Shown: positions 5,161 to 43,570, counted from the first letter of the stretch. The stretch: 46,066 bases of DNA from Parcubacteria group bacterium Gr01-1014_2 (GCA_007376425.1 VMGG01000001.1:1-46066); one strand, 5' to 3'. Translations and numbers: made by a program. The notes: generated from the sequence alone by a model not told the origin.

Positions 5161-8100
5161 TTGATAAAATTAATGAAAATGAAAATGTTCAGGACACTAA
5201 ATAATTCTTTAGGTTTTTTATGCTATAGATATGCTGTCAAGCCGACACTTGTCATCTTTTTACTTTTATTAACCCTGATTACTTTAGATACTTACATATC
5301 ATCAACCTCGCAATTAACTCTTGCCCAAGTCTCTTGGACTCCGCCCATCGGCATCCCTATTCCGTCATTTGGTATTGAAGAGACTATCAGCGATAGCGTC
5401 TATACTCACTGGATAGATAATTCTGGTACCTGTTCTGATTCAAGCAATGGTACGCCAGCTAATCCAAGATGCACTATCCCAATAACTTTAGCCGCCGGCT
5501 CAATTATTCAAATACGCGGTATCTCCTATACTCTTCCCGGCGCTAATCCAACATTTACCGGGAACGGCACAATCTCCCAACCCGTGTTCCTGCGAGGACC
5601 TAGCACCGGACAAAAACCCAAGCTCATCAATACCAGCGATTCTAAGTTCTTTAATGGCAGTTACTTCATCGTTGAGAATATTGATATTGACCGTGGCACT
5701 ACGACAGGCAATCACATAGTCATCCGTAACAGTGAGGTACATGATCATCCATATCGCAACGGCATCACCGTCGGCGGCCAAGACATCGTTATTTACAACA
5801 ACTCCATCCACCATACAGGCAATCAGGTTGTTCCTGATGATAGGCATGGCGTAACCGTAACTTCAAGTGCTCAACGAATCTGGATTGTCGACAATGAAAT
5901 CTATAAATCCTCTGGCGACGGCATCCAATTCTGCCATGCCTGTCCGGAGCCTGGCCCTCAATATGTATACATTGGAAGAAATAAAATCCACGACAATGTG
6001 GAAAATGCGGTGGACTTCAAGACGTCACAGCATGTGGTAGTGTCGCAGAACGAGATGTACGGCCACAGGCCAACTTCGGCAGGCACAACCAGTTCTGATG
6101 GAACGGCTGCGTTAATCGGCAGTAATGGTCTAGCCGATGCGGCGGTGGATATCTGGATTATCTTTAATGACATCTATAACAACGGGCCGGGTATTCGGGT
6201 TGAAGCCTCGGCGAATGCTGGCGGGACTGCCGGACCAGCTTATCTCATTGGCAATCTCATCCGTAATAGTTCCGCGGCCGCGTTTAAGTTCGAGAAATCC
6301 GGCAACCCCATCCATATCTACGGGAATACGGTTTACGATACTGATACAGCCATTAATGCGGACTGGCGAGATCAGTTTTCGTTCCGTATTTATAATAATA
6401 TCTTTGCCAATCTCCGGGGCCAGCAATTCGGGAATCACATTAATATTGAACCTTCGCCGATCGGCCAAAATTCTATCATGAGTCAAAATCTTTTCTGGCA
6501 AAACGGCGGCCCGGTAACCATTAACTGGGGCGGAACATCCTCTACTTATACCTCAACGGCCGGACTGGCAGGATTCTCCGGAGGCGCGAATAATATTATT
6601 TCAGATCCAAAGTTTAACAATCCGGGCATTGATTTCCATCTTCAGTCGAGTAGCCCGGCCATTGATTCTGCCAATTACGGTCTCTTCGACTATGCCGCAA
6701 CCTTCTGCCAAACATTCGGAGCTTTTATTTCTAATTGTCTGAACTCTGTCAAAATGGATTTTGAAAAGAATGTCCGTCCCCAAGGCGCAGGCTGGGATAG
6801 AGGCGCTTTTGAATTTGGTGGAACTCCAACCACCACTCTAACCCCTACACCTAGTCCCACTCCTAGTTCCACCCCAACACCTACCCCAACACCTACCCCA
6901 ACTCTCACTCCGACACCAACTCCTACTTCTATGCCGACACCCACTCCTACACCAACGCCTACACCGACTCCTACACCCACCCCAACCCCAACGCCACCAC
7001 CAACTTTTAATGTTGGTAATCGCATTCGTCTGCTCAACAACGCTAATGTCCGTACACAAGGCATTATATCTTCTGCCACCCTCCTCGGAACTCAACCTCA
7101 AGGAACATTAGGCACTATCGTTCTAGGTCCTACCCAATCTTCTGCTAATCCTTACATTTGGTGGCAGGTCGATTATGATAGTGGAGTAGATGGTTGGACC
7201 GCGGATGATAATTTTGCTTTAGTATCTCCCACTCCTACCCCTACTCCTTCACCAACACTTACTCCTTCACCAACTCCGACTCCGACTCCGACCCCAACCC
7301 CAACTTCAATTCCTACACCCACCCCAACCCCAACTTCAACACCAGCCCCGACACCGACACCAGACACGATTAAACCAAGCATCACCTCTTGGGATGTTCA
7401 ACCAAGAAGCGGAACTGGTTCTGTCACCATTTCCTGGACCGTTACAGACGCCGGAGGGTCTTTTATCAAAGAAATTGAGGTCAAGCGGGCTGTTTTTCAA
7501 GACAACGGATGCAACGACTCCGATAAATCAAAATGCATTTGGATCAACATCAGAACAATAAATGTCCAGCCGCCAACCTACTTTTATGGTCTCCACGCTA
7601 TCGATGGCGCAGGCAACATAGCCGTTGAACCAGCTCCAATAAAAGTTTTCGCAATCGGTTCTTCTCCAGCCCCTACCCCTACCCCAACACCAACTTCTAT
7701 TCCAACGCCAGCTCCCACTCCAACTCCAGCGCCACCTGGAGGTGGCGGCGGTGGCGGTGGTAGCGGTGGTGGTGGTGGCGGCACTTCATTCCCCACACCT
7801 CTATCTACTCCCATCCCAATCCCAATTCCCGCTCCTAGCTCTGGCGCCCTGCCTCTTAACTTCAATTCTCTTTCTCCAGCTGAAAAAATTACTACTCTTC
7901 AAAACATCATCAGCCAACTTACTACTCAAATCAATAAACTCTTAAGACAGACCGGGCAACTGCCCATCACTGGAAAATGTATCTTTACCAGAGATCTTTT
8001 CTTAAACAGTGCTGGAGAAGATGTCAGATGCTTACAGAAGTTCCTTAATGCTGGAGGATTTACCTTGGCTGTTTCAGGACCTGGTTCTCCCGGAAATGAA

Positions 8101-8691: not shown

Positions 8692-9162
8692 TTAAATCTT
8701 ATTTTTAAGGAACCCCCGTTCATCTTCAGTGAGATTTTGTTCTTCTAAAAACTTTTTCCATTCTGGATCCTTTCTATTTTCTTTTTTGTACTGCAACCCC
8801 TTAAACCCTGAAACCTTTAAACTTTTGATTAAACCTGAAATCAATATTGAACATCGTCTACATAAATTATTTAAGTGTTTAAAAGTTTCATCGTTTAAAT
8901 ACCCGACATCCAAAGCCACATACAACTGCGCTCTTACCTCTCCGGCCGAACCTTTGGCGATATAAAGATAATTAAGAAATTCTTGATTAGTGCCTCGTTC
9001 AAACCCTTCGGCGATATTAGACATAACCGAAACTGTAGCACGTTGAATCTGGTCTTTGAAACCGTAATCTTTTAAATACTTGAATTCTTTGTATATCTCT
9101 TTAGTCAGTTCTCGTGCCATCTGCCAACAAACCAAATCTTCGAAAGATTTTATTGTAGCCAT
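8692..9162 (-). CDS. Four-helix-bundle protein (23S rRNA intervening-sequence protein family)
   Basis: FEDLVCWQMARELTKEIY...DQIQRATVSVMSNIAEGFERGTNQEFLNYLYIAKGSAGEVRAQL is the classic signature of this family. Confidence 0.8.
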   Translation of the reverse strand: MATIKSFEDLVCWQMARELTKEIYKEFKYLKDYGFKDQIQRATVSVMSNIAEGFERGTNQEFLNYLYIAKGSAGEVRAQLYVALDVGYLNDETFKHLNNLCRRCSILISGLIKSLKVSGFKGLQYKKENRKDPEWKKFLEEQNLTEDERGFLKNKI

Positions 9163-9165: not shown

Positions 9166-10974
9166 TTAAATTCTCTCTGGTGCTTCTATCCCAAGCAAAT
9201 TCAAGCCATTTTTAAGTACGGCGGCAATGGTTTCAACTAATAAGAGCCGCGCATTACGTTCTGGTCTTTTACTGTAATCACTTAACTTTTCTACTGTTTC
9301 GTAATAGTGATTAGCCCTAGAAGACAACTCGTAAAGATACAAGGCCAAATTATTCGTTGAATAAAGTTTTGCTGAATTCGATATAATATCTGGAAAATCC
9401 AGAAGTTGTTTAATAATTCTCAATTCTTGCTCGCTCTTTAATTCTGATATATTTATTTTTGCAAATCTGCGGCCGATCCAATTGGGCATAATATACCATC
9501 TAAAACTTCTGAGTCGTAAAGGAGGAAACCATTTGCTTTTCCGCATTATACTTTTCAAACGGGCATATGTATATTGCAAGTAAGGCCCGGTATTCCCTAT
9601 AGGTTTAAGTATTTCATCCCAATTAAATACAATATCGCTATTTCTATGCTCTTTTAAAACAAAATATTTTAATCCGCCGATGCCTACTACTTTTGGAATT
9701 TCTTCTTTTTGAACCTCTGAATATTCTTTATTGCTTTCTTCTATTTTCTTTCTTGATTTTTCTATCGCTTCTTTAACTAATTCCATCATATGAATAGCTT
9801 TTCCTTCGCGACTGGATAATTTTTTCCTATCTTCTCCCAGAACTAAACCGAATTTTACATGGTCCAATTTTGTTTTATCTAAATTCAAAATCTTAGAAAT
9901 CGCTAAAAGCTGTTGAAAATGTAAAGACTGCTCATTGCCGACTACATAAAGAATCTTTGATGGCTTATACTTTGAAATTCTATATTTTAAATTTGCGATA
10001 TCGCGAGTTAAATATAAACTCGTGGCATCTGATTTCTGGATTAAGGCTGGCGATAAATTAAATTTTTCTAAATCAATTATAATAGCTCCTTCACTTTTTT
10101 TTGCAATGCCTTTATCTAATAATTCTGAAACTAATGGTTTTAAATCTTTTTCAAAAAAACTTTCGCTAATTATAGTATCAAATTTAACCTCCAAAATTTG
10201 ATAAATTTTATTAAATTCTTTTATTGATTCGATTCTGAACCATTCCCATAAAATCCTGTTCTTTTTATCTCCTTCCTCAAGTTTTTTAAATTCCTGCCGG
10301 CCTTTTTCCCCTAGTTCTGGGTTATTTTTCATTTCATCATGGAATTTTACATAAAGCTTATTCAACGTCTCAATCGGATTTTTTTCAACTTTTTCTCTAT
10401 CACCCCATAATTTGTACGCGGCGATTAAATTTCCAAACTGCGTTCCCCAATCACCTAAATAATTCCATCTAATGACTTTATAACCCAGATATTTATAAGT
10501 ATTTGCCAATGTATCTCCAATAAAAGTTGAGCGCATATGACCAACATGCATGACCTTAGCAATGTTAGGTTGAGAATATTCTATGATTACAGTTTGTTTT
10601 CTACCCAAATTACCGCGACCCCAGTTTCTTTTATTTTTGTAAATCGATTTTAACTGTTGCTGTAAAAAACTAGGCTCTAAATAAAAATTGATGAATCCGT
10701 TTTTAGCAACTTCTATTTTTTCAAATTCTTTGCTGAATTCTTTTTTTAGTTTCCCGATGACTTCTTCAACGATTTTTTTAATATTAGGCCCTAAAACGTC
10801 TGGTTTATCCAGACGTTCGGGCGACAAATTCGCTCCGCGAATTTGTTTAGCCAAAATAAAAGCGATATTAGTTGAATAGTCGCCAAGGCCTTCTGGGGGG
10901 TAAAAGACATCGAAATCAAGATTGGGATACTCCTGTTTTAAAAATTTGAATACTTGTTCTTTCATTAGTATCAT
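9166..10974 (-). CDS. argS: Arginine--tRNA ligase
   Basis: It has the class-I HIGH-type motif MHVGHMRSTFIGD, the GDWGTQFG block and a C-terminal DALR-like end (YLYELSSRANHYY). An alternative ATG lies 3 codons in (10965). Confidence 0.9.
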   Translation of the reverse strand: MILMKEQVFKFLKQEYPNLDFDVFYPPEGLGDYSTNIAFILAKQIRGANLSPERLDKPDVLGPNIKKIVEEVIGKLKKEFSKEFEKIEVAKNGFINFYLEPSFLQQQLKSIYKNKRNWGRGNLGRKQTVIIEYSQPNIAKVMHVGHMRSTFIGDTLANTYKYLGYKVIRWNYLGDWGTQFGNLIAAYKLWGDREKVEKNPIETLNKLYVKFHDEMKNNPELGEKGRQEFKKLEEGDKKNRILWEWFRIESIKEFNKIYQILEVKFDTIISESFFEKDLKPLVSELLDKGIAKKSEGAIIIDLEKFNLSPALIQKSDATSLYLTRDIANLKYRISKYKPSKILYVVGNEQSLHFQQLLAISKILNLDKTKLDHVKFGLVLGEDRKKLSSREGKAIHMMELVKEAIEKSRKKIEESNKEYSEVQKEEIPKVVGIGGLKYFVLKEHRNSDIVFNWDEILKPIGNTGPYLQYTYARLKSIMRKSKWFPPLRLRSFRWYIMPNWIGRRFAKINISELKSEQELRIIKQLLDFPDIISNSAKLYSTNNLALYLYELSSRANHYYETVEKLSDYSKRPERNARLLLVETIAAVLKNGLNLLGIEAPERI

Positions 10975-11046: not shown

Positions 11047-12123
11047 ATGTTAAACGAAGAGAAAATTATTATTGATGCCGTTAAAAAAGCCTCGCCCAGC
11101 GTCGTCAGTGTTATTATTTCAAAACATATGCCTAAGGCTAAACGAATGCTGCTTTCGCCTTTTGGCTCTATTGAAATTCCATTACCTCATGCGAAAGAAG
11201 ACCCTCCTTCGCCAAAGGCTTCGGAAGGGCACAGCAAAAAAAATCATGTCCAAATCGGCGGCGGCTCCGGGTTTATCGTCAATTCGAATAACGAGCACAG
11301 TTTAATTCTGACCAATAAGCATGTAGTCCATGACCATGATGCCGAATACACGGTTTTGATAGACGATAAAGAATACGAAGCTCAAGTCATTTCTGTTGAC
11401 CCTTTAAATGACATTGCCATGCTTAAAATAAAAGTCGGCGGACTGCCGATAGTTAAACTTGGCAATTCATCGAAAATCCAAATCGGCCAAACCGTCATTG
11501 CCATTGGCACCGCTCTGGGAATGTTCACTAATACTGTTTCCAAAGGAATTGTCTCGGGACTGGCTCGACGGATTGCCGCTTCGCTTGGCACCGGCGAGGA
11601 AACCGAAGTTTTAAGAGGGGTAATCCAAACCGACGTCGCCATCAACCAGGGAAACTCTGGCGGGCCGCTGATTAATACCGAAGGCGAGGTTATCGGCATC
11701 AATACGGCCATAATTTTCGGCGCCCAAAATATCGGCTTTGCCCTGCCAATTAATTGGGCTAAAAAAGATGTAGACGATATATTAAAATACGGAAAGATTG
11801 AAAGGCCGTATCTGGGACTTCGCTATATGATGCTCAATAAAAAACTAAAAGAGCAATATGAACTTGGCGCCGAAGCCGGGGCCTTAGTCATAAAAGACCA
11901 CTTGCCCAATTCGCAGGCAGTCGTAAAAGGAAGCCCGGCAGATAAAGCCGGCATAAAAGAGAATGATGTAATCGTCGCGGTAAATGAAAAACAGCTGGAC
12001 GAAAAGATGGAGCTAGCTGACTTAATCCAAGAATTCAAAATTGGCGATGAAGTGGAAATGACTCTCTTAAGGGACGGGAAGGAAACAGTAAAGACAAAAG
12101 TGAAGCTGGAAGAGATGAAATAG
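11047..12123 (+). CDS. htrA: HtrA/DegP-family serine protease with a PDZ domain
   Basis: It has a trypsin-fold catalytic set (TNKHVV, DIAMLKI, GNSGGPLIN) and a C-terminal PDZ-like domain (GALVIKD...SPADKAGIKENDVIVAVN). Confidence 0.9.
   Translation: MLNEEKIIIDAVKKASPSVVSVIISKHMPKAKRMLLSPFGSIEIPLPHAKEDPPSPKASEGHSKKNHVQIGGGSGFIVNSNNEHSLILTNKHVVHDHDAEYTVLIDDKEYEAQVISVDPLNDIAMLKIKVGGLPIVKLGNSSKIQIGQTVIAIGTALGMFTNTVSKGIVSGLARRIAASLGTGEETEVLRGVIQTDVAINQGNSGGPLINTEGEVIGINTAIIFGAQNIGFALPINWAKKDVDDILKYGKIERPYLGLRYMMLNKKLKEQYELGAEAGALVIKDHLPNSQAVVKGSPADKAGIKENDVIVAVNEKQLDEKMELADLIQEFKIGDEVEMTLLRDGKETVKTKVKLEEMK
11202..11229 (+). repeat. GC-rich palindromic mini-element, in-frame inside htrA (encodes PPSPKASEG)
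   Basis: The sequence is ccctccttcgccaaaggcttcggaaggg. Its reverse complement carries the core cgaagcc-ttt-ggcgaa shared with the copies at 12211 and 17329. Confidence 0.7.
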
Positions 12124-12130
12124 ATAAAAC

Positions 12131-12163
12131 AAAAAAACTGGCGATATTCTAGCCAGTTTTTTT
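12131..12163 (+). terminator. Intrinsic terminator after htrA (A-run/T-run, possibly bidirectional)
   Basis: The sequence is aaaaaaactggc-gatattcta-gccagttttttt, followed by gtttt. Confidence 0.8.
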
Positions 12164-12170
12164 GTTTTGT

Positions 12171-12209
12171 GCCGTGCACTCCGTCGCTTTCAGCTATGAA
12201 GTGCACGGC
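12171..12209. repeat. GC-rich hairpin element (10-bp perfect stem)
   Basis: gccgtgcact ... agtgcacggc encloses ccgtcgctttcagctatga. Confidence 0.7.
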
Positions 12210-12210
12210 G

Positions 12211-12236
12211 CACTGCGAAGCCTTGGCGAAGCAGTG
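12211..12236. repeat. GC-rich palindromic mini-element, intergenic copy
   Basis: The sequence is cactgc-gaagcc-tt-ggcgaa-gcagtg. It has the same architecture and core as the valS copy tcctcc-gtagcc-tc-ggcgaa-ggagga. Confidence 0.75.
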
Positions 12237-12299
12237 GAAAACTCTGGTAATGGAATTATATGGGTATGGAGATTGGCTTCGCCTCTCGCCTCGCCGCCA

Positions 12300-12566
12300 T
12301 TATAATTTAGTAGATAAATCTTTTTGAAATCTCTTGATTAACATTTCTTTTTTGTCTCGCCGCCATTTTTTAATCTGGATTTCCCTTTTCCTTGCTTCTT
12401 TAAGAGTTTTGTATTCTTCCTGAAATACTAAAATAAATTTACTTTTTGATTTAGTGAATTGAGCACCTTGCCCAGTATTATGGTAGTAAGTTCTATTTTT
12501 TAAGTTTGTGGTAATTCCGACATAAAGTTTACCTTTGGAATTTTTTAACATATACACAAAATACAT
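12300..12566 (-). CDS. GIY-YIG nuclease family protein (small, stand-alone)
   Basis: The motifs are YFVYMLKNSKGKLYVGITTNLKNRTYYHN...KEARKREIQIKKW. I place the start at Met10 of the track ORF because codons 1-9 overlap a terminator hairpin. Confidence 0.8.
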   Translation of the reverse strand: MYFVYMLKNSKGKLYVGITTNLKNRTYYHNTGQGAQFTKSKSKFILVFQEEYKTLKEARKREIQIKKWRRDKKEMLIKRFQKDLSTKL

Positions 12567-12581
12567 AACGTTATAATAAAT

Positions 12582-12611
12582 AAAACACCGCATTTTTCAA
12601 TGTGGTGTTTT
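12582..12611 (-). terminator. Intrinsic terminator downstream of ssrA
   Basis: On the minus strand, aaaacaccac-attgaaaaa-tgcggtgtttt is followed by atttatt. The stem is 8 bp with one G-U pair. Confidence 0.65.
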
Positions 12612-12707
12612 ATCGAGGTGCCCCTCGACGTTGCTCGGGGCACTCTCCTCGCTATCATTTTATGTGGCTCGCCACGAGCGAGCCGAATGATAATGAGGCG
12701 AGTCGAG

Positions 12708-13061
12708 TGGAGGTGGGGAGATTGAACCCCCGTCCGGGAAAATCTTTGGAAAAACGTTTAGCAAGTTTAAATCGGTTTAAATCAAACCCGAAGTGAGAAA
12801 CCGACAAAATCTCCGGGCGCCTAAAAAATAAAAGGTGCTACAGAAATTTATTAGGTATAAACCTCTGTGTTTTCTCTCGGTGTCTGACGCTCTATTCTGC
12901 TACCGAGAACCTTGCAGATAGAACGCGCTTGCGGTTTTTAGGCGTAAGCGTAATTAGGTGAATAATTTGCACCTATTTGATTAGCCGAATTTTTAATGTG
13001 ATGACGGCCATTCACAACCTGCCGTTTAACTTCAGATGATTCCGTCGAAACTCGCACCCCC
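12708..13061 (-). ncRNA. ssrA: tmRNA (SsrA)
   Basis: The minus-strand 5' end is GGGGGTGCGAGTTTCGACGGAA. The 3' end is GGGGGTTCAATCTCCC-CACCTCC-A. The acceptor GGGGGTG/CACCTCC contains a G3-U70 pair, and CCA is not encoded. The tag ORF is GCA AAT TAT TCA CCT AAT TAC GCT TAC GCC TAA (12970..12938), giving ANYSPNYAYA. smpB is the adjacent gene. Confidence 0.85.
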
Positions 13062-13083
13062 GTATTTAAATTATTTCTTGTTA

Positions 13084-13536
13084 TTAAATTTTTCGGTATT
13101 GTTTTAAGACTCTTTCTATCTTTCTTTTTTCTTCTTTCTTTCTTATAGAAGTTCTTTTATCGTATTTCCTTTTGGCTTTTGCCAAGCCGATTTCAATCTT
13201 TACTTTACCTTTCTTATCATACACTTTCAAAGGGACTATTGTCAAGCCGCGTTCTTTTGATTTCCCGACTAAACCAGCAATTTCTTTTCTATTCAAAAGA
13301 AGCTTTCTGTTTCTTTCAGGCTCATAATTTTTGGGTGTATTTTTTGGCTGGTAAGGAGCAATGGTTGCGCCAATTAAAAATGCTTCCCCATCAATTATTT
13401 GTATATAAGAGCCTAAAATTGAAATTTTCCCGCTTCTTACTGCTTTGACTTCATGACCCTCAAGAACTATCCCCGCCTCAAAATTTTCAATTATTTCGTA
13501 ATCATGCCAGGCTTTTTTGTTTTCAGCATAAGCCAT
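13084..13536 (-). CDS. smpB: SsrA-binding protein SmpB
   Basis: NKKAWHDYEIIENFEAGIVLEGHEVKAVR...LLLNRKEI matches SmpB throughout. Confidence 0.95.
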   Translation of the reverse strand: MAYAENKKAWHDYEIIENFEAGIVLEGHEVKAVRSGKISILGSYIQIIDGEAFLIGATIAPYQPKNTPKNYEPERNRKLLLNRKEIAGLVGKSKERGLTIVPLKVYDKKGKVKIEIGLAKAKRKYDKRTSIRKKEEKRKIERVLKQYRKI

Positions 13537-13607
13537 AAATAAATTAAATCAATTATGACCTAAAAACGCAAAGCCGCCTCGTCTCAATTCAATGAAACTT
13601 GACGGCT

Positions 13608-13811
13608 TCACAGATTTCTCAGGCGTCGAATAAAAATAATTCTTCGCGGCCATGTGGATAGACTGCGAATAATTTCCAACAGACCCATTCTTTTTGACCT
13701 GGCAGCCGCAAGCTCGGTCTGACCAAACAAAACTTCTTGAATACGGGTTTGCTTGACAGGATTCAGATCTGACGCCTTGGAAACTATGGGAAAGTGCTCT
13801 TGCTTACTCAC
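13608..13811 (-). CDS. Hypothetical small protein (67 aa)
   Basis: It has a GTG start preceded by GGGGGTGAAAGG (SD-like). No family is recognised. GC is higher than in the neighbours. Confidence 0.35.
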   Translation of the reverse strand: MSKQEHFPIVSKASDLNPVKQTRIQEVLFGQTELAAARSKRMGLLEIIRSLSTWPRRIIFIRRLRNL

Positions 13812-13878
13812 CTTTCACCCCCTTTCTGATTTGCTAATAAAAGCTATACCACAAATATATACAAAATAAAACTACTTT

Positions 13879-14031
13879 CCCCGCACCTTTTGTGAACTAA
13901 TTCTTTCTTGCATTGATAACATAAGCTTTAATTCAAGGTCTTACCTTAGACAAAGCAAGACTTTCTAAGAAAGTGGTGATGAAAGAATCAAATCAATGCT
14001 AGTTCACAAAAGGTGCGGGGTTTTATTTTTT
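13879..14031 (+). promoter_or_regulatory. Structured leader / attenuator-like element upstream of infC
   Basis: A perfect 21-nt inverted repeat, ccccgcaccttttgtgaacta (13879-13899) / tagttcacaaaaggtgcgggg (14000-14020), is followed immediately by ttttatttttt. Inner complementary pairs include ttctttc/gaaagaa. Confidence 0.5.
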
Positions 14032-14582
14032 CAAGGTTTGTGATAAACTCTAACAGAGTGTCTAATTTTAGGCGTCCGCGAGCAAATTTTCATATCAGGG
14101 TCCCCCAGGTTTTAGTTATTGACGAAAAAGGAGAAAAACTTGGGGTTTTAAATACTTCTGAAGCGCTTAAAATGGCTCAAGAAAAAGGATTTGACCTCGT
14201 TGAAATAGTGCCAAATCCTCCCGGTGGCGGGCCGCCGATAGTTCGAATTATGGATTTAGGCAAATGGCTTTACGAAAAAGGAAAATCAGAAAAGAAAAAA
14301 ACAAAAGGAGCAAAAACAGAGGTTAAGATAATCAGAATCGGTTTAACTACCGGCATTCACGATTTAGAGATCAAGGCCAAAAAAGTTGAAGAATTTTTAA
14401 AAGAAAATCATAAAGTTCATATTGAGCTTCAACTAAGAGGCAGACAGATAACAATGAAAGACTTGGGAAGAGAAAAAATCAGAGAATTTTTGAAAATCAT
14501 AAAAGAAAAACAAGATTTTGAAACAGAAAGTGACATAAAAAGCCAGGGCCGGAGCTTAAGCATCGTAATCAAGAAGAAATAG
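14013..14582 (+). CDS. infC: Translation initiation factor IF-3 (start codon uncertain, probably non-AUG downstream of 14013)
   Basis: IRVPQVLVIDEKGEKLGVLNTSEALKMAQEKGFDLVEI plus the C-domain KIIRIGLTTGIHDLEIKAKKVEEFL match IF3. Start candidates are GTG 14040, ATA 14043 and GTG 14058. The track start at 14013 lies inside the leader stem. Confidence 0.85.
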   Translation: MRGFIFSRFVINSNRVSNFRRPRANFHIRVPQVLVIDEKGEKLGVLNTSEALKMAQEKGFDLVEIVPNPPGGGPPIVRIMDLGKWLYEKGKSEKKKTKGAKTEVKIIRIGLTTGIHDLEIKAKKVEEFLKENHKVHIELQLRGRQITMKDLGREKIREFLKIIKEKQDFETESDIKSQGRSLSIVIKKK

Positions 14583-14607
14583 CATGCGAATAAGAATAAA
14601 TAATAAA

Positions 14608-14805
14608 ATGTCAAAAGGATTCAGACCAAAAAAAGCGCTTTTAAAACGCATCAAAATTACCGGCAAAGGTAAAATGTTTCGCCGCCAGACGCGGCTTAAT
14701 CATTTTAATGCCAAAGATACCGGAGAAGGCACGAGGCGCAAAAGAAAAGAATCTTTGATTGCCAAAGCCGATGAAAAAGCAATGAAACAGTTATTGCCGC
14801 TTTGA
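14608..14805 (+). CDS. rpmI: 50S ribosomal protein L35
   Basis: MSKGFRPKKALLKRIKITGKGKMFRRQ...HFNAKDTGEGTRRKRK matches L35. The track ORF begins 8 codons upstream at 14584. Confidence 0.85.
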   Translation: MSKGFRPKKALLKRIKITGKGKMFRRQTRLNHFNAKDTGEGTRRKRKESLIAKADEKAMKQLLPL

Positions 14806-14843
14806 AGTTAAATAATAGACACGTAATTTAGAAATTAGCGCAC

Positions 14844-15197
14844 ATGACCAGAGTTAAAAGAGGAACAATTGCTAATAAACGAAGGAAAAAACTCTTAAAA
14901 GCAGCCAAAGGTTTTAAGTGGTCAAGAAAAAACAAATACCGGGCAGCCAAAGAAGGAATTTATCATGCCTGGAAAAATGCTTTTATTGGCCGGAAGCAGA
15001 AAAAAAGAAATATGCGCCGGCTCTGGAATGTAAAGATAAACGCCGGTGTCAGGATGAACTCCGAAAACGGAATGAATTACAGCAAATTCATTAACGGCCT
15101 TAAAAAAGCGAATATTGAGTTGGACCGAAAGGTTTTGGCCCAGCTCGGCGAAAATCACCCGGAAGTTTTTAAGAAGATCTTAGAAATAATTAAATAA
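14844..15197 (+). CDS. rplT: 50S ribosomal protein L20
   Basis: MTRVKRGTIANKRRKKLLKAAKGF...RKQKKRNMRRLWNVKINAGVR matches L20. Confidence 0.95.
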   Translation: MTRVKRGTIANKRRKKLLKAAKGFKWSRKNKYRAAKEGIYHAWKNAFIGRKQKKRNMRRLWNVKINAGVRMNSENGMNYSKFINGLKKANIELDRKVLAQLGENHPEVFKKILEIIK

Positions 15198-15203
15198 AAA
15201 AAA

Positions 15204-15240
15204 CCGCTCTGAACTTGTCGAAGGGCGGTTTTTTGTTTTA
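15204..15240 (+). terminator. Intrinsic terminator after rplT
   Basis: A 7-bp stem (ccgctct-gaacttgtcga-agggcgg) is followed by ttttttgtttt. Confidence 0.8.
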
Positions 15241-15968
15241 GTAGCCCCGACGGGATTTTATCAATCTAAACTTTTAATAATGCCATCAATTAAACCTTTG
15301 ATTTTGAAAAATTCTTGTCGACGACTAACTCTAAGTTGAAGTGTTCCATATGGCAGTAAATGTTTAGGTCTTTTTCTTTGGCTTGCTCTACTTAAAGCAA
15401 CTTGATAACGAAAATTTTCTTTAGGAATTTTAGTAATACTTTGCCAGTAATCTACTGATTTTTTTGGATTTAAATTAGGATAAATCATGACTTGTCCTTT
15501 TATTTTCTCTTTAGAAATGCCGAGTATTCTTTTAAGAAACTCAATAAAAGCGGCTATCATTTGAGGATCTGAATTACCAAAACAAATATAAGGATAAGTA
15601 CCATTTCTTTTAATGTTGAAATTTTTATAGCCCTCTCCCCAGTATAAAGCAGCCCCAAGTATCATCAACTCTCGATTACTTAGATTATTAATTTTAGATT
15701 CATAATCTTTTCTAATTCTTTCATTCTCTTCTTTAATATTTAAAGTTCTTATTTTATTAAATTCAATTAACTTAAGATAGCCATTGCCCCTTTTTGATTC
15801 AATAATTCTTTGAGCTTTTTTACTAACCTTTAATTTAGAAAACCAAACACTAAGGGTAGATTTTGGAATCCCAAAAGTATTTCTAATCTCTCCGTAAGTT
15901 TTACCTTCTAGACGAAGCGCTAATGCTGTTTGATAATCCTTTCTTGGATTCATGTAGCCCCAAGGGGA
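15241..15968 (-). mobile_element. Single-gene insertion (HTH + LAGLIDADG-like ORF) abutting tRNA-Glu, bracketed by a 15-nt imperfect direct repeat
   Basis: gtagccccgacggga (15241-15255) and gtagccccaagggga (15954-15968) match at 13/15 positions. The second copy is the 3' end of tRNA-Glu. Confidence 0.5.
15261..15953 (-). CDS. HTH-containing LAGLIDADG-like homing-endonuclease-type protein
   Basis: The N-terminus has a resolvase-type HTH (KTYGEIRNTFGIPKSTLSVWF). There is a single motif, LMILGAALYWGEGYK. The ATG sits 2 nt after the tRNA-Glu discriminator position. Confidence 0.6.
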   Translation of the reverse strand: MNPRKDYQTALALRLEGKTYGEIRNTFGIPKSTLSVWFSKLKVSKKAQRIIESKRGNGYLKLIEFNKIRTLNIKEENERIRKDYESKINNLSNRELMILGAALYWGEGYKNFNIKRNGTYPYICFGNSDPQMIAAFIEFLKRILGISKEKIKGQVMIYPNLNPKKSVDYWQSITKIPKENFRYQVALSRASQRKRPKHLLPYGTLQLRVSRRQEFFKIKGLIDGIIKSLD

Positions 15969-16026
15969 GTCGCACCCCTATTTGCTTCTTGAAAGAAAGC
16001 TGTCCTAACTGTTAGACGATGGGGCC
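15955..16026 (-). tRNA. tRNA-Glu (anticodon UUC), atypical loops
   Basis: The minus strand reads GGCCCCA TC GTCT AACAGTTA GGAC A GCTTT CTTTCAA GAAGC AAAT AGGGG TGCGACT CCCCT TGGGGCT A. The D-loop lacks GG, the T-loop is TGCGACT and there is a G1-U72 wobble. Confidence 0.7.
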
Positions 16027-16121
16027 GTGATATAAACTAACGATTACATAATAACAAATAATTATCGTTAGTTCAATACTAAATGTTGATAATTAATGGA
16101 GAAATGATAGAATTTAAGACT

Positions 16122-17204
16122 ATGAAAATTCTTGGAATTGAGACATCCTGCGATGAAACTTCAATTGCAATTCTTAATGTAAATCCTCCTACGCATAAAG
16201 CTTCGAAAGGACACTTGGGACGAATTAAAGTATTATCTAATATTATATCGTCCCAAGTCAAAATTCACGCCCCTTATGGAGGCGTTGTTCCATCACTAGC
16301 GGCAAGGGAACACGAAAAAAATCTTAAACCGGTTTTTGAAAAAGCTCTAAAGGGGGCCAAAACTGAAATGACAGATATAGATTTAATTGCCGTAACTATC
16401 GGCCCGGGCCTTGAAATCGCTTTATGGAAAGGAATTAATTTCGCAAAATCAATCGCCCAAGAATTTAAAAAACCACTTATTGCCGTAAATCATCTGGAAG
16501 GACACATCTACTCGAATTGGTTACCGCCACTCAATAAAACTAAAACCCTTCGAAGCTTTAGCGAAGTAGGGCCGGCCCTTAATTTAATCGTTTCCGGCGG
16601 ACATACCCAGCTTGTTTTAATGACCGGTCACGGAAAATTTAAAATCCTCGGCGAAACCCAAGATGACGCCGCCGGCGAGGCTTTTGATAAAATTGCCAAA
16701 ATGATGAGTCTTGGCTATCCGGGAGGGCCGATTGTTTCAAAAATGGCTGAAAAAGGAAACCCCAAAAAATTCCAGTTTCCTCGGCCGATGTTAAACCAAA
16801 AAAACTATAATTTTAGTTTTTCAGGATTAAAGACTGCCGTCTTATATTTGATTAAGGACCTAAGAAATCTTAACGAAAAAATAAAAGCTGACATTTGCGC
16901 TTCTTTTCAACAAGCAGTCATAGATGTATTAGTCCAAAAAACTATTAAAGCGGCGAAAGAATATAAAGTTAAATCAATCTTGCTTTCAGGCGGAGTTTCA
17001 GCTAATAAGCTTTTAAGAAAAACTCTCCAAAAAGAAACAAAAAAACTCAAGCTATTATACTCCCAGCCGGATTTGCAATATACGGGCGATAATGCAGCAA
17101 TGACTGCAGCAGTTGGCTACTATAAATTTAAATATAAAAAGCATAAAATGCCTAATTTTGAAAGTTTGGTTGTTGACGCTAACTTACCCGTTAAAAATTG
17201 GTAA
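16122..17204 (+). CDS. tsaD: tRNA N6-threonylcarbamoyladenosine synthase TsaD
   Basis: MKILGIETSCDETSIAIL, YGGVVPSLAAREH, NHLEGHI and VSGGHTQL match TsaD. The start is taken at Met14 of the track ORF. Confidence 0.9.
   Translation: MKILGIETSCDETSIAILNVNPPTHKASKGHLGRIKVLSNIISSQVKIHAPYGGVVPSLAAREHEKNLKPVFEKALKGAKTEMTDIDLIAVTIGPGLEIALWKGINFAKSIAQEFKKPLIAVNHLEGHIYSNWLPPLNKTKTLRSFSEVGPALNLIVSGGHTQLVLMTGHGKFKILGETQDDAAGEAFDKIAKMMSLGYPGGPIVSKMAEKGNPKKFQFPRPMLNQKNYNFSFSGLKTAVLYLIKDLRNLNEKIKADICASFQQAVIDVLVQKTIKAAKEYKVKSILLSGGVSANKLLRKTLQKETKKLKLLYSQPDLQYTGDNAAMTAAVGYYKFKYKKHKMPNFESLVVDANLPVKNW
16185..16211 (+). repeat. Degenerate palindromic mini-element, in-frame in tsaD (encodes PPTHKASKG)
   Basis: cctcctacgcataaagcttcgaaagga aligns with the htrA copy in the same frame (PPSPKASEGH versus PPTHKASKGH). 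Confidence 0.6.
16546..16571 (+). repeat. Palindromic mini-element, in-frame in tsaD (encodes TLRSFSEVG)
   Basis: The sequence is cccttcgaagctttagcgaagtaggg, with stem cttcg/cgaag and core cgaagc-ttta-gcgaa. Confidence 0.65.
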
Positions 17205-17232
17205 AGCGGTGGATTTCAGATAAAATTAAATA

Positions 17233-19335
17233 ATGGAGGAACTGCCAAAGGCTTATAATCCCAAAGAAGTTGAAGACCGCATTTACAAACTCTGGGAGGA
17301 GAGCGGTTTTTTCAGTCCAGAAGGACTGTCCTCCGTAGCCTCGGCGAAGGAGGATAGATTTATTTCTCGTAAATTCGTGACAGCTATCGCCCCGCCAAAT
17401 ATTACCGGCGAGCTGCACATGGGCCATGCTCTTGAATTAAGTATGCAAGATATCCTAGTTCGGATGAAAAGAATGGAAGGATATAAAACTCTTTGGATCC
17501 CTGGAATCGATCATGCCGGCATAGCCGCTCAAAATGTCGTAGAAAAACAACTTAAAAAAGAAGGTCTATCAAGACATGATTTAGGCAGAGAAAAATTTGA
17601 ACAGAGAGTCCAAGAATGGAAAGAAAAATACGGCACTGCGATATTAGATCAATTTAAGAAACTCGGCATTTCGGTTGATTGGTCAAGAATTAGATATACC
17701 CGAGATGAAAAATATGAAAAGGCAGTACTCGAAGCATTTAATCAATATCATAAAAGGGGATGGATTTATAAAGGGTATCGAGTGATTAATTGGTGCGTAC
17801 GCTGCGGCACCGGTATTTCCGATCTTGAGGTAAAACATACTCCTGAAAAAGGAAAACTTTATTATATAAAGTACGGGCCTTTTACTATTGCTACGGCCAG
17901 ACCGGAAACAAAATTAGGAGATACTGGTTTAGCCGTCCATCCTGATGACGAACGTTATAAAGATTATATCGGAAAAGATATTGAAATTGACTCAGTAGAC
18001 AACGATCTCCCGCCTTCTGAAAATCCAAGACTGAAAAAAATAAAAATAAAGGTTGTTGCTGATGAAACAGTTGAAAGTCTTTTCGGCACCGGCATTATAA
18101 AGGTTACTCCGGCTCACGATTTAACCGATTTTGAAATTTCCCAACGCCATAACTTGCCTCTTATAAAAATAATAGACGAGAATGGCACCATGAACCAAAA
18201 TGCCGGAAAAAGATACAAAGGACTAAAGGTTTCCGAAGTTAGGCAAAAAATAGTCAAAGACCTTGAAGAATCGGGGCTTCTGGAAAAAGTTGAAGACTAC
18301 AATCACAACGTCGGAAGATGCGATCGCTGTGATTCAATCATTGAACCGCTTCCTTCTAACCAATGGTTTCTTAAGGTTTCTGAACTGGCAAAACTAGCCA
18401 AAGAAACGATTAAAAAAGAAGGGGTTAAGTTCCACCCGGACAGATGGAATGAGATATCTTTGCGCTGGCTTGAAAATATAAGAGACTGGAACATTTCAAG
18501 GCAACTTTGGTGGGGGCATAAGATACCAATAGAAGGAGAGGATGATGTTTTAGATACGTGGTTCTCTTCAGCGCTTTGGCCATTTGCTGTTTTTGGTTGG
18601 CCAGAAAAAACAAAAGACTTATCTGAATACTATCCAACAAACTTTATTACTTCGGATCGCGGAATAGTATTTTTATGGCAAATAAGAATGATTTTTTCGG
18701 GTAAGTTTTTTATGAACAAAGCGCCTTTTAGCAATATATATATTCATCCTACCGTTTTAACAAAAGATGGAAAAAGAATGTCTAAATCACTTGGAACAGG
18801 TATTGATCCGGTTGATTTGATCGAAAAATACGGAGCGGATGCCCTAAGATTTGGCCTGGCTTATCAAAATACCGGCGTTCAGGATATGAGATTTAATGAA
18901 GCTGTAATTTTAACAGGCAAAAAGTTTGCCAACAAGCTCTGGAATATTGCCCGGTATATAATGAGAAGAGTGGAAGGAGATTGGGATAGATATAAGCCGT
19001 TCTCTATTGATAAAATCACGGGATCAGAAAGTTTCGGCGGACCGATGAAAACAACAGCTGAAGAAGTTACAGAAAATATAAATCAATATCGTTTCGGTGA
19101 TGCTGCACATATAATCTATGACTACATGTGGCATCAAATTGCGGACAAATACATAGAAATGTCAAAAAAAGAAAACCAAGACAATGAAGAAGAAATAAAA
19201 GAAAACCTTGTGCTTTATCTAATTAATCTTCTCAAGCTTCTTCACCCGTTCATGCCTTTCATTACCGAGGAAATCTGGAGTAAGTTGCCGATAAAAAATA
19301 AGAAACTGCTTTTAATTGAAAAATGGCCCCATTAG
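17233..19335 (+). CDS. valS: Valine--tRNA ligase (short form, no long C-terminal coiled coil)
   Basis: It has PPNITGELHMGHAL (HIGH), the CP1 editing region, KMSKSLG (KMSKS) and an anticodon-binding helical end. It is 700 aa long. Confidence 0.9.
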   Translation: MEELPKAYNPKEVEDRIYKLWEESGFFSPEGLSSVASAKEDRFISRKFVTAIAPPNITGELHMGHALELSMQDILVRMKRMEGYKTLWIPGIDHAGIAAQNVVEKQLKKEGLSRHDLGREKFEQRVQEWKEKYGTAILDQFKKLGISVDWSRIRYTRDEKYEKAVLEAFNQYHKRGWIYKGYRVINWCVRCGTGISDLEVKHTPEKGKLYYIKYGPFTIATARPETKLGDTGLAVHPDDERYKDYIGKDIEIDSVDNDLPPSENPRLKKIKIKVVADETVESLFGTGIIKVTPAHDLTDFEISQRHNLPLIKIIDENGTMNQNAGKRYKGLKVSEVRQKIVKDLEESGLLEKVEDYNHNVGRCDRCDSIIEPLPSNQWFLKVSELAKLAKETIKKEGVKFHPDRWNEISLRWLENIRDWNISRQLWWGHKIPIEGEDDVLDTWFSSALWPFAVFGWPEKTKDLSEYYPTNFITSDRGIVFLWQIRMIFSGKFFMNKAPFSNIYIHPTVLTKDGKRMSKSLGTGIDPVDLIEKYGADALRFGLAYQNTGVQDMRFNEAVILTGKKFANKLWNIARYIMRRVEGDWDRYKPFSIDKITGSESFGGPMKTTAEEVTENINQYRFGDAAHIIYDYMWHQIADKYIEMSKKENQDNEEEIKENLVLYLINLLKLLHPFMPFITEEIWSKLPIKNKKLLLIEKWPH
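17329..17354 (+). repeat. Palindromic mini-element, in-frame in valS (encodes SSVASAKED)
   Basis: The sequence is tcctcc-gtagcc-tc-ggcgaa-ggagga, with a 6-bp perfect outer stem. It lies just upstream of the HIGH motif, in a region where I do not expect conserved residues. Confidence 0.75.
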
Positions 19336-32670: not shown

Positions 32671-35600
32671 TTATACTACAACCACTGAAGCCACTCCATC
32701 ACCAGAGTCCATCTTCATCACTCTCACCCCTTGGGTCGCTCGGCCCAGAACCGATATGCTTTTTAATTCAGTCCTGATAATTTGTCCTTTCTTGGAAATG
32801 ACAATGAGCTCTTTCTGCTCTGGATCAACAATTTGAGCGGAAACTATTTTCCCGGTTTTGGAAGTGACTTTGGCCGCCTTAACTCCTTTGCCGGCCCGCC
32901 TCTGGATTTTAAAAGCTTTAAGGTCAGTTCTTTTGCCATAACCGTTTTCCATTATTACCAAAAGCTGGTGTTTGGCTAAAGTCTGATCTGTAATTACTTC
33001 GGTCCCAATAACATAATCGTTTTTTGAAAGCTTGACTCCGGTGACGCCGGCTGCATTGCGCCCCATCCCCCGCACATCTTTTTCTTTAAAACGGATCGAA
33101 CTGCCTTCATTGGTAACCAAAAGTATCTCGTCGCTGCCCGAAGTAAGTCTGACCCAATTTAGAAAATCGCCCTCATAAAGCTTGATGGCAATCAGGCCGC
33201 TTCGCCTGATATTGACGAACTGATCAACTTCAACTTTTTTAACTACGCCGTCACGAGTGGCCATAAAAAGATATTTTGCTTCTTTCGCTTTGGCTTTCGG
33301 AACTCGAACCACGGCCGTGATTACTTCCTGCGAAGAAATATTCAAAAAATTAACTATTGATTTGCCGCGGCTCACCCTTGAAGATTCTGGCACCTCATAG
33401 CCCTTAGTTTGGAAAACTTTTCCGGAAGCGGTAAAAAATAATAAATTGTCATGGGTATTAGCCAAAAAGAAATGGCTGACAATGTCTTCTTCTTTTGTGG
33501 TCATTCCAATTAAGCCTTTGCCGCCGCGTTTTTGAATCCTCAATTCGGATGAGGACATCCGCTTAATGTAGCCCGAATGGGTCAAAACAAATAAAGCGTC
33601 TTCTTCCGGCACTAATTCTTCTTCGCCGATTTCTTTCAAAGCGCCTCTGACTATTTTGGTTTTTCTTGCATCCCCGTATTTTTGCTTGAGTTCTTCGAAT
33701 TCATCTTTCATTAATTTTAAAATTTTCTTGGGGCTGGCTAACAATTCTTCTAAGTAAACAACAAGCTGTTTTTTCTCCTTGAGTTCGTCTTCAATCTTTT
33801 TTCTTTCCAAACCAGCCAAAGCCTGCAATCGCATCTCCAAAATGGCGGTAGTCTGAAGTTCGGTGAATTTGAATTTTTTGATTAAGTTATTAAAAGCATC
33901 CTCGCGGCTTTCCGATTTTTTAATAGTGGCGATTATTTCGTCAATATGATCAAGGGCTTTTTTCAATCCTTCCAGAATATGGGCCCTGGCTTTGGTTTGA
34001 GCCAAATCAAATTTAGTCCGCCGAGTGATAACATTTTTTCGATGTTCAATAAACTTTTCAAGAATGGTTTTTAAAGAAAGGGTCTGGGGCTGGATGCCGT
34101 CAAGCAAGGCCACCATATTGAAGTGATAAGTTTTTTGGAGATCAGTGTATTTAAAAAGCTGATTCAAAACTTTCCGGGGGGAAGAATCCTGTTTCAGTTC
34201 AATTACAATTCTCAAGCCTTCCCGATCAGACTCGTCGCGCAAATCCCTTATGCCTTCGATTTTTTTGTCTTTGACTAAATCGGCAATCTTAATAATCAAT
34301 TCGGCTTTATTAACTTGATAAGGGATTTCAGTAACGATAATCCGATAAGTCTCTTTCCCCTCGACCTGAGCTCGGGACGAAGGTTTATTCTCTTCGATAT
34401 CAACCTTGGCCCGGCTGACCACCGGACCGCGGCCCGTAGCATAAGCATTTAACAAATCTTCTCGGTTATAAATTATCCCGCCGGTCGGGAAATCAGGGCC
34501 TTGGATAAAATTTACTAATTCTTTATTGTCGGCTTCGGGATTATCAATCAAATGAACTAAACCATCTAAAACTTCGGTAATATTATGAGGCGGGATATTA
34601 GTCGCCATTCCCACGGCAATTCCGAAAGAGCCGTTTAATAAAAGGCTTGGAACGCGTGACGGCAAAACTACTGGTTCTTTTCTCGTGGCATCGTAGTTAT
34701 CGACAAAATCGACGGTCTCTTTTTCAATATCAATCAAGAGCTCTTCAGCGACCGAGGTCATCCTTGCCTCCGAATAACGCATCGCAGCAGCAGAATCTCC
34801 ATCAATCGAGTTATGAACAAAAATTCCTGAAGCCAGAGCAAAGTTATGAGTTTTATCAACTGTTAAATCATAAACATCTCGTTTCTCTTCTAAAAATCTA
34901 ACTTCTAGAACTTTGTGATTATACTTCTGGGCCTGGCTGACAATTTCTTTGAAATCTGAAAAATATCTCAAAACATTATTTATATTTGGGGTCCCGTTAT
35001 TAGCTCTGTTTTTTTCATAAGTCTCTGGGGTTAGTTCATAACCCTGATCTAATAAATTTTTAGCATGCCTCAAAATCTTTGATTTTATCACCTGTTCCTT
35101 GTACCCGGCTTTTTGCCATTTTTTTCTCAGAGACACGGCTGCTTTTTTTGCCAGTCTTTTCATAAAGTCGGGTTGCTCTTTCAATCGTTGCAGATTTCTT
35201 TCTTTTGTCGCTTGGGATATTTTTTTTCTGAATTCCGGGATTTCCCACTGCTTTCTGGCTTTTTCAGAATGAATCTTCTTCATCTCTGGATTGCTCCATA
35301 AAACTTTCGCCATCCGGCTAAAATGGTTTTGGGGGTATTTCGCTCTATACTGAGGGTCTCGCCATAACTTTTTTGCAAATTTTGTTTGCCTTTTTCTATA
35401 CTCTGGATTTTCCCATTGTTTTTTAGATGACTCACTTATATACTCGCGATGCTCGGGATTGGCCCATAACTTCAAAGACCATTCTCTAGTCAAGTCGGTC
35501 ATTTTTTTTCTATAATTTTCATCTTGCCACTTTATCTTCAGCTCCTTTGATTTCAATTTACTCATGAGCTTCTGATAATCTGCTCGTTGCCATGTCTTTT

Positions 35601-43568: not shown

Positions 43569-43570
43569 TT

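Follow-up and report, generated by a model that had tools for sequence, protein, structure and literature searches.

Short REP-like hairpins, probably a small mobile element, within and between genes of Parcubacteria and other bacteria

The definition of repetitive extragenic palindromic (REP) sequences includes a tetranucleotide 5' of the hairpin foot, which guides cleavage with REP-associated tyrosine transposases (RAYTs), and in published descriptions REPs are specific to a species (PMC6006769). Di Nocera et al. (2013) described GTAG- and CGTC-tagged REPs lying wholly inside genes and encoding roughly 8–10 residues, the genes concerned being often those of replication and repair, such as both uvrA genes and polA-type genes of Opitutus terrae, or, elsewhere, tRNA synthetase genes (PMC3733652). 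Some REPs are inserted within small palindromes, and some REP families carry non-complementary di- or trinucleotides between stem and loop (PMC3733652). Rickettsia palindromic elements (RPEs) are palindromic selfish DNA found in frame in unrelated housekeeping genes, at positions predicted to be compatible with fold and function, and also in non-coding DNA (PMC10969869), with RPE-4 and RPE-6 being short CGTC REPs (PMC3733652). The insertion sequence IS608 has a subterminal hairpin with a 4-nt guide 5' of its foot, and inserts and excises precisely without target-site duplication (PMC6006769). Here we describe a family of 26–27-nt GC-rich hairpins in a 46,066-nt stretch of DNA from Parcubacteria group bacterium Gr01-1014_2 (GCA_007376425.1, VMGG01000001.1:1-46066; hereafter the window), which we consider, with a probability of roughly 0.7, to be copies of a REP-like mobile DNA element, non-autonomous and very small. 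The unit appears or vanishes as one precise block without target-site duplication. The family is not peculiar to the Gr01-1014_2 genome, nor to the Candidate Phyla Radiation (CPR), whose Parcubacteria-type genomes hold the nearest relatives of the window's TsaD, remoter ones being named Candidatus Yanofskybacteria.

Hairpin copies in the window and the family they form

The hairpin runs from a 6-nt arm through G-N-A-G-C, a 4–5-nt loop and G-C-G-N-A to a complementary arm, forming an imperfect structure of 26–27 nt with a 6-bp stem, a symmetric G-N-A/G-N-A internal loop, a GC/GC clamp and a 4–5-nt apical loop. A 4-nt leader lies 5' of the hairpin foot, with the consensus CTTG, or YGTG(Y) in the window's lineage. 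Five copies in the window align readily once oriented, and are given below with a weaker neighbour and with scores from R1, a covariance model of the family built from 24 copies:

11200–11233, minus strand: htrA copy, leader TGTGC plus a 27-nt hairpin at 11202–11228; R1 38.0 bits
12206–12238, plus strand: intergenic copy in the htrA–tmRNA spacer, hairpin 12211–12236, perfect 6-bp arms CACTGC/GCAGTG and CTTG loop; R1 38.0 bits
16182–16215, minus strand: decayed copy at tsaD site 1, hairpin 16184–16210, encoding NPPTHKASKGHL; R1 36.4 bits
16541–16573, plus strand: copy at tsaD site 2, hairpin 16546–16571, encoding TKTLRSFSEVGP; R1 38.0 bits
17324–17356, plus strand: valS copy, hairpin 17329–17354, perfect arms TCCTCC/GGAGGA, encoding GLSSVASAKEDR; R1 38.2 bits
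12172–12208, strand unassigned: neighbouring hairpin with a 9-bp stem, GCCGTGCAC...GTGCACGGC; weak R1 match, 13.1 bits, E = 0.13

The htrA hairpin reads CCTTCC GAAGC CTTTG GCGAA GGAGGG, with the plus strand encoding DPPSPKASEGHS, and the spacer and valS hairpins read CACTGC GAAGC CTTG GCGAA GCAGTG and TCCTCC GTAGC CTCG GCGAA GGAGGA, respectively. For the spacer copy the DNA minimum-free-energy fold is the proposed structure. R1 scores the five copies at 36–38 bits (E about 1e-8), leaving a gap of about 25 bits to the next best match in the window at 13 bits, the 12172–12208 hairpin, which is possibly a decayed family copy.

An earlier note on this DNA had listed seven copies, of which the five above are recovered by R1, with the peptides it gave for the coding copies (PPSPKASEG, PPTHKASKG, TLRSFSEVG and SSVASAKED) borne out by reading of the sequence. 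Its cluster of related hairpins at 12166–12300 reduces to one clear copy and the weak 12172–12208 hairpin. The two remaining candidates, a copy in gyrA (34365–34391) and an eroded one in argS (9490–9540), are not matched by R1 at E ≤ 10, and the argS segment bears no resemblance to the family on reading. Both were rejected as family members on the R1 result. The gyrA palindrome, CCCTCG ACCTGAGCTCGGGA CGAAGG, has similar outer arms and a different core. Against solved GyrA structures the gyrA site is still a genuine insertion of 9 residues, and the palindrome that encodes it may belong to another hairpin family.

A strict structural pattern in which the arms are required, drawn up after copies had been seen, matches the window five times, whereas 500 simulated first-order Markov sequences average 0.056 matches. 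As this pattern was set post hoc, independent sequence carries more weight, and in independent syntenic loci the pattern is found six times in 21 kb (L034) and twice in 3.7 kb (L001). Across 39 loci (581 kb), 28 of the 29 R1 matches fall in CPR relatives, with ~390 kb of loci of other bacteria gathered with the same TsaD query giving a few weak pattern matches and one weak R1 match. The central claim of the earlier note, of one palindromic family defined at the nucleotide level and present both in spacers and in frame in essential genes, holds. Since orientation and frame both vary among the copies, with the family DNA read in all six frames across the coding copies, it is the DNA and not the peptide that is conserved. 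Copy density, counted over loci, is 5 in the 46 kb of the window, with 7–8 for L034 and 3 for L219, each over 21 kb. Rfam 15, searched at gathering thresholds or permissive E-values with 20 metagenome loci and two short stretches as well as the window and L003, has no family that covers the hairpin.

The 30-nt unit, its sites and its spread

The unit is defined at base resolution by two alleles of ctaA, L222 (filled) and L221 (empty), which are 99.83% identical over 1158 nt and whose sole block difference is exactly 30 nt, TCCCCCTTCGCTAAAGCTTCGGAGGACAAG. In element orientation (the reverse complement) this block reads CTTG + TCCTCC GAAGC TTTA GCGAA GGGGGA, its boundaries are unshiftable, and there is no target-site duplication, with the empty site (GCCTCGCA directly followed by AGCGAGGC) being the centre of a perfect 7-bp palindrome. 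In a second ctaA pair, L140/L220, with 99.2% identity, the same block recurs in another variant of the element, the two filled alleles differing at 5 of 30 element positions and by 3.6% in their flanks. R1 matches the filled ctaA alleles only.

The leader is part of this unit. Upstream of 117 independent matches, positions −5 to −2 are C in 55%, T in 47%, T in 72% and G in 76%, with conservation ending beyond them, and the leader travels with the hairpin both in the ctaA pair and in nested copies. About 85% of matches have a 4-nt loop, so the canonical unit is 4 + 26 = 30 nt, and units of 30–33 nt amount to 8–11 residues when they lie in genes. By reading, the CTTG-loop unit contains stop codons in none of the six frames; being 30 nt long and stop-free, such a unit is automatically in frame when inserted into a gene.

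Nested copies, in which leader and hairpin lie within the apical loop of another copy, are found in L034 (TsaD site 1), L036 (htrA), L203 and L217, the last inverted. Once 30 or 33 nt are taken out, the loop left behind is one of the variants that solo copies show (TTTAC, TTTAT, CTTG or CTCG). Five of 175 copies are placed at the apex of an outer stem of at least 7 bp, compared with about 0.4 expected, and as the other 97% are not, the hairpin loop is a favoured and not an obligatory target. A palindrome apex as the general target was accordingly rejected, accounting for only ~3% of copies; it is enriched, not the rule. The 5' flanks at resolved junctions vary (CGCT, TTTA, GCCT, AGCC and CCGA), with no constant target tetranucleotide. 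At TsaD site 2 of two distantly related genomes (L038 3146–3184 and L039 about 1260–1300), a second hairpin type is nested in the element loop, GCCTTC G/ATAGC CGAAGC..CTTCG GCGGA GTAGGC, which follows the same plan with an inner hairpin.

Comparison with orthologues, a check suggested in the earlier note, reveals that the HtrA, TsaD and ValS inserts are lineage-specific and patchy among relatives. At TsaD site 2, TLRSFSEVG is a clean ~27-nt surplus over L001 (79% identical) and L002 (75%), and is also missing in L037. The site 1 insert is present in L001 with a better-preserved palindrome and missing in L002; the valS insert is present in L001 and L034 and missing, as a 24-nt difference, in L002, L036, L037 and L039. 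Where the window's HtrA has PPSPKASEG, the near-identical orthologue in L037 has the Lys/Glu-rich KKEKEEN. Among 59 TsaD homologues (the window's own being P0001), 10 carry the site 1 insert and 11 the site 2 insert, in a patchy distribution that requires at least nine changes at site 1 and at least eight at site 2 on a neighbour-joining tree. A search for recent indels within clusters of TsaD at 90% identity was discarded, the length differences being differing start calls only. An AlphaFold model of TsaD (mean predicted local distance difference test (pLDDT) score 89.9) puts both inserts in loops, in keeping with the variable loops that had been expected for them, with site 1 between strands 12–20 and 34–44 (pLDDT <50 at residues 25–29) and site 2 in the loop region between helix 124–133 and strand 152–157. 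About half of the copies in the CPR set are intragenic, including, in L034, copies in argS and at a second site in valS; L039 and L219 have a copy near the C terminus of TsaD.

Further inserts in the same proteins are of other kinds. At TsaD site 2, unrelated AT-rich cassettes replace the GC-rich hairpin in relatives including P0007, P0008, P0010, P0023, P0046 and others (L034 10400–10470), with encoded peptides such as SKILNSKK, SNFKFSKKIF, SEFLISKQ and KFKIKNSKLF. As other relatives carry these unrelated cassettes there, the site 2 loop is a general hot spot, which the cassettes, looking like a second repeat family, share. ValS has a further window-specific insert of 13 residues at 18010–18050, PSENPRLKKIKIK, which is AT-rich, has no obvious palindrome and is missing in 6 of 6 aligned relatives.

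The family extends well beyond the window's lineage. For the exact pattern CCTCCTWCGCN{4,5}GCTWCGRAGG, approximately one chance match or fewer would be expected per ~10^12 bases (our own estimate, the collection size being assumed), and a scan recovered at least 120 metagenome stretches, with GC contents of 0.34–0.72 among the matches listed, and 59 stretches in viral contigs (GC 0.33–0.72), some of them multi-copy. Plasmids of cultured bacteria (7.3 Gb) gave only four weak partial matches. Among the matches listed, metagenome copies are mostly intergenic, often by tRNA genes and among other GC-rich hairpins, with a fifth lying within long open reading frames (ORFs), where 12 copies run in the direction of the gene and 14 against it. 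Ten intra-ORF copies were checked by Pfam and fall in SecA, DNA polymerase I (PolA), UvrA (two contigs), RecR, DnaG, GyrB, CtaA and a protein with an ADP-ribosylglycohydrolase domain, with one lacking a Pfam match; the RecR copy sits inside the zinc-finger loop. Verrucomicrobiota is the phylum of the CtaA contig, assigned to Chthoniobacterales, and of one UvrA contig, assigned to Opitutaceae. The same 24–25-nt core is found in Parcubacteria, Chthoniobacterales, Opitutaceae and viral contigs, and the family is not specific to a species or genus. A second filled/empty allele pair was sought in the Opitutaceae UvrA, where no close alleles turned up, the nearest relative being only 85% identical.

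Several other repeats accompany the family. In the Opitutaceae uvrA (L115 6618–7817), the family copy, PPSLKLRR, is joined by other GC-rich inserts, such as SSSAFAKASASAKAMADK and SPRRSQPVRRG, the inserts forming a lineage-specific block of ~45 residues that is missing in a 78%-identical relative. Tandem arrays of half-elements, with repeats of 14 nt (GCGAAGGAGGATCA) or 18 nt (AAGCCTTGGCGAAGGAGG), are present in L077 (about 6100–6230) and L166 (about 1700–1780), and suggest local amplification by slippage. The tRNA-Lys/tRNA-Arg spacer of L003 (7806–8199 and 8400–8520) holds several hairpin families and partial duplicates of a tRNA 3' end, GGAGGAAGCTATGGGCGG, which occurs twice; a different widespread repeat, GTCATTCTGAACGGAGCGAAGCGGAGTGAAGAATC..., lies close by. 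The unrelated contigs L047, L059, L082, L092 and L126 have, next to the family, a further recurrent hairpin, CCACGGG(N4-5)CCCGTGG, whose flanks (GATGAATGCG) are conserved.

Within the window (GC 0.35–0.52), the gene names given by the earlier note are supported by Pfam, ARAGORN and Rfam:

9166–10974, minus strand: argS
11047–12123, plus strand: htrA
12705–13061, minus strand: transfer-messenger RNA (tmRNA) gene
13084–13536, minus strand: smpB
16122–17204, plus strand: tsaD
17233–19335, plus strand: valS
32671–36705, minus strand: gyrA, containing an intein

The gyrA product has 1344 residues, with its N-terminal domain split by the intein (Pfam Intein_splicing, residues 118–632). A gene for a large serine recombinase (43412–45280; 543 residues; Resolvase, Recombinase and Zn_ribbon_recom domains) adjoins a tRNA-Thr/Phe/Gly cluster, and may mark the edge of an integrated element. 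A gene of the PF05635 family ('23S rRNA intervening sequence protein') is present at 8692–9162 (minus strand) in the window and at 8768–9133 in L036, placed differently in the two.

Proposed mobilisation and alternative explanations

If the hairpins are copies of a mobile element, one strand, that carrying GAAGC...GCGAA, would fold, with the G-N-A/G-N-A internal loop able to form sheared G.A pairs; at the flank pair, G.T wobbles on the GAAGC strand outnumber A.C mismatches by 6 to 1. A structure-specific enzyme supplied in trans would then recognise the folded strand, cut it and rejoin single-stranded DNA, in a mechanism modelled by analogy on the tyrosine transposases of the IS200/IS605 type and those associated with REPs, which use a tetranucleotide next to the hairpin. 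As the common 30-nt unit has no stop codon in most frames, insertions into tolerant surface loops of essential proteins would persist as 8–11 extra residues, with others being purged.

A number of observations weigh against an element of this kind. Pfam searches of essentially all ORFs of the window reveal no transposase, only the large serine recombinase and the intein, and a crude tblastn search of 1.88 Mb of loci, with an IS200 TnpA as query, found no IS200-like TnpA. Similarly, no RAYT gene (TnpA_REP, Y1 HUH) was found in the window, among the called genes of L034–L039 and L219–L222, or by the crude tblastn search of the 1.88 Mb, and among 150 ORFs next to metagenome copies no Pfam family is enriched. 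Orientation is mixed over 6 kb of the window, with no sign of the replication-strand bias of IS608, and a strict IS608-like mechanism is further opposed by the variable 5' flanks at junctions and by the lack of a Y1 transposase in the data searched. The L222/L221 event fits insertion or precise excision alike, and ~97% of copies lie away from a palindrome apex. Carriers at each TsaD site all share orientation and frame, those at site 2 also the same imperfect arms, a pattern equally compatible with repeated insertion and with a single old insertion after which losses were many or recombination took place. The arms vary yet stay complementary, with compensatory changes at 4 of 6 outer-stem pairs and 96.9% of cells pairing, but the copies behind this count were selected by required pairing, which introduces circularity. 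Folding energies from a nearest-neighbour model, which gives no credit for sheared G.A pairs, are modest (−2 to −6 kcal/mol; z −0.3 to −1.7). Additionally, REPs, with their reported species-specificity, differ from a hairpin whose sequence is almost identical in widely different genomes.

The alternative that fares best concerns the enzyme, and refines the explanation preferred here by naming one. A small GIY-YIG nuclease ORF lies in the window between the tmRNA gene and the hairpin cluster:

12300–12593, minus strand: small GIY-YIG nuclease ORF, Pfam PF01541, E = 1.4e-16

The ORF, of 97 residues as called and with a likely true start at MYFVYMLKN, has the spacer hairpin 67 nt downstream, and its product, which matches the UPF0213 protein BH0048 (PDB 1zg2, E = 5.6e-10), is a tentative candidate for a partner acting on the hairpins in trans. 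On this account a small, structure-specific GIY-YIG (UPF0213, Slx1-like) nuclease would nick hairpin or cruciform loops and have the hairpins as its passengers or recognition sites, the gene and its flanking hairpins forming the autonomous element, as RAYT does in a REPtron, and solo hairpins the non-autonomous one. Small GIY-YIG genes number 16 in 1.89 Mb of loci, and 7 of them have a family hairpin no more than 100 nt away, a distance that takes in only 3.3% of bases. A hairpin precedes the start codon by 6–20 nt, in the orientation of the gene, in the CPR loci L034 and L037 (20 nt) and in L107, L122, L139 and L150 (GC 0.54–0.66), with L107 and L122 having a second, inverted hairpin ~30 nt further upstream, just downstream of a tRNA gene. 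Insertion at hairpin apices is also what a loop-nicking nuclease might be expected to favour. However, the numbers are small and several cases are either orthologous (window, L034 and L037) or of the same arrangement (L107, L122 and L139), five other CPR GIY-YIG genes (one in L003 and two each in L035 and L036) have no hairpin within 1 kb, and only 2 of the 150 ORFs flanking metagenome copies encode a GIY-YIG protein. Both features may simply gather in permissive spacers by tRNA and tmRNA genes. A single-protein scan of viral contigs yielded no relatives, our literature search gave no published link between these nucleases and hairpins, and GIY-YIG nucleases cut DNA but are not known to rejoin it. 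We regard this account as possible. A bolder version, in which the 30-nt unit moves seamlessly across phyla (CPR, Verrucomicrobiota and others) and phage, prefers the loops of folded palindromes and is driven by an Slx1-like GIY-YIG nuclease instead of a tyrosine HUH transposase, and would represent a 'REPtron' of a new type through which essential proteins routinely gain residues, is doubtful.

The sequence 3' of the GIY-YIG stop codon is common to the window (12237–12300), L034 (5925–6050) and L037 (4880–4900). On the gene strand it reads GGCGAGGCGAGAGGCGAAGCCAATCTCC... and resembles a partial tRNA or tmRNA 3' end, with an extra hairpin inserted there in L034.

A second alternative is that the hairpins spread mainly via homologous recombination or gene conversion, or derive from one old insertion followed by many losses, with little ongoing transposition, in which case patchiness would reflect allele exchange and hairpin-stimulated deletion. 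The common orientation and frame at TsaD sites 1 and 2 are consistent with this, as are the imperfect arms CCCTTC/GTAGGG that site 2 copies share across lineages 60–79% identical, and the nested second hairpin found at the same position in the distant relatives L038 and L039. At ctaA, the filled state extends across lineages 78–99% identical, and the empty allele L221 stands alone in its subclade, which suggests loss. What such a history leaves unexplained is the spread to unrelated genes (SecA, PolA, UvrA, RecR and others), phyla and viral contigs, together with the nested copies in either orientation. Furthermore, the ctaA boundaries have no direct repeat to drive a slippage deletion, and the excess of differences between the filled ctaA elements (5 of 30 positions) over their flanks (3.6%) fits separate arrivals or exchange with other copies. 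Recombination and loss as the main route are therefore judged unlikely.

It is more improbable still that the hairpins are selected signals in RNA or DNA, whether terminators or RNA stabilisers in spacers, hairpins that mask the Shine-Dalgarno (SD) sequence by way of a GGAGG 3' arm, or translation pause sites within genes. In favour are the arms, often CCTCC/GGAGG and so a match to the anti-SD and SD, the start codons that several viral contigs have at an SD-like distance from the 3' arm, as is also the case upstream of GIY-YIG genes, and the wobble bias at the flank pair. SD masking or translational coupling was nonetheless rejected, ORF starts 3–13 nt past the hairpin being no commoner (15% and 12%) than at random positions (14%). 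Coding copies do not favour the direction of the gene (12 same, 14 opposite), those beside the tmRNA gene are antisense to the tmRNA, the hairpin lacks a following T-run and a matching Rfam family, and orthologues work without the insert.

That the family is a product of chance or composition, as a set of unrelated GC-rich palindromes or a convergent peptide motif, is excluded: the hairpins are short with unremarkable folding energies, and the simple core pattern without arms is only 5-fold enriched in the window (5 against 1.04), but adding the arms leaves 0.056 expected, R1 lifts the copies ~25 bits above background, the pattern of more than 20 bases recurs in at least 120 metagenome stretches where one or fewer was expected in the assumed ~10^12 bases, and the same DNA is read in differing frames and orientations.

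Relation to known systems

Taken as copies of a small mobile element, the hairpins would extend the occurrence of selfish DNA inside protein-coding genes past Rickettsia and a few REP-rich species to the CPR, soil Verrucomicrobiota and phage contigs, with a 30-nt, duplication-free unit that is smaller than any yet resolved to the base. They account for part of the lineage-specific inserts in core CPR proteins, which matters for orthologue alignment, phylogeny and structure prediction. The near-identity across phyla, unusual for REP-like repeats, points to a conserved or horizontally moving enzyme, for which the GIY-YIG association gives a concrete candidate, and a system for seamless insertion or excision of 30 nt aimed at hairpin loops could be a possible tool.

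The phenomenon of palindromes within genes is not new, as REPs inside genes were reported by Di Nocera et al. (2013) (PMC3733652). The likeness to RPEs drawn in the earlier note stands, as does its statement that the present elements are much shorter, although shortness alone offers no novelty, since REP-type hairpins of small size have already been described within genes (PMC3733652). Our literature searches found no match for the exact hairpin sequence or for in-frame palindromes in the CPR. We could find no description of the sequence family itself, its CTTG/YGTG tag, its G-N-A/G-N-A core or its presence in the CPR, nor of the near-identity across phyla and phage contigs, the base-exact, duplication-free 30-nt allele pair or the association with GIY-YIG genes, all of which are apparently undescribed.

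Yeast mitochondrial GC clusters are likewise short GC-rich palindromic mobile units in an AT-rich genome, sometimes within coding sequence. These are organellar and differ in sequence and target features, and no relation is implied. Elements of the IS200/IS605 group share with the present unit a 4-nt guide-like leader 5' of the hairpin and movement as a precise, duplication-free block (L222/L221). Those elements have two different ends and tnpA, enter on the 3' side of a fixed tetranucleotide and favour the template of the lagging strand. The unit described here is, in contrast, a single hairpin with no ORF; its 5' targets share no constant tetranucleotide, and its orientation shows no bias over 6 kb. 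As in RPEs, a palindromic repeat lies in frame in functional genes at fold-compatible positions. Classical RPEs, however, are about 100–150 bp long, encode a conserved peptide of 30–50 residues and are restricted to Rickettsia (PMC10969869), whereas the present unit is 30–33 nt (8–11 residues), is read in any frame and occurs across phyla.

The closest resemblance is to REPs, which are likewise short imperfect hairpins (20–40 nt, or about 21–65 nt in a wider definition; here 26–27 nt), and in architecture the hairpin agrees with how REPs are structurally defined (PMC6006769). REPs have an unpaired tetranucleotide at one foot and are multi-copy and dispersed, to which the conserved 4-nt leader and the copies counted in loci here may correspond. 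The hairpin differs in its tag, CTTG or YGTG and not GT[AG]G or CGTC, in its core, G-N-A GC ... GC G-N-A, which is not among the sequences or peptides in the supplements of PMC3733652, and in that no RAYT gene was found near the hairpins studied here. About half of the CPR-clade copies lie inside essential genes, and, unlike the species-specific REPs (PMC6006769), the sequence hardly differs between CPR bacteria, Verrucomicrobiota and viral contigs, whose GC contents span 0.33–0.72. The element is therefore best filed with the REP/RPE kind of selfish palindromic DNA, as a member with an unusual cross-phylum distribution.

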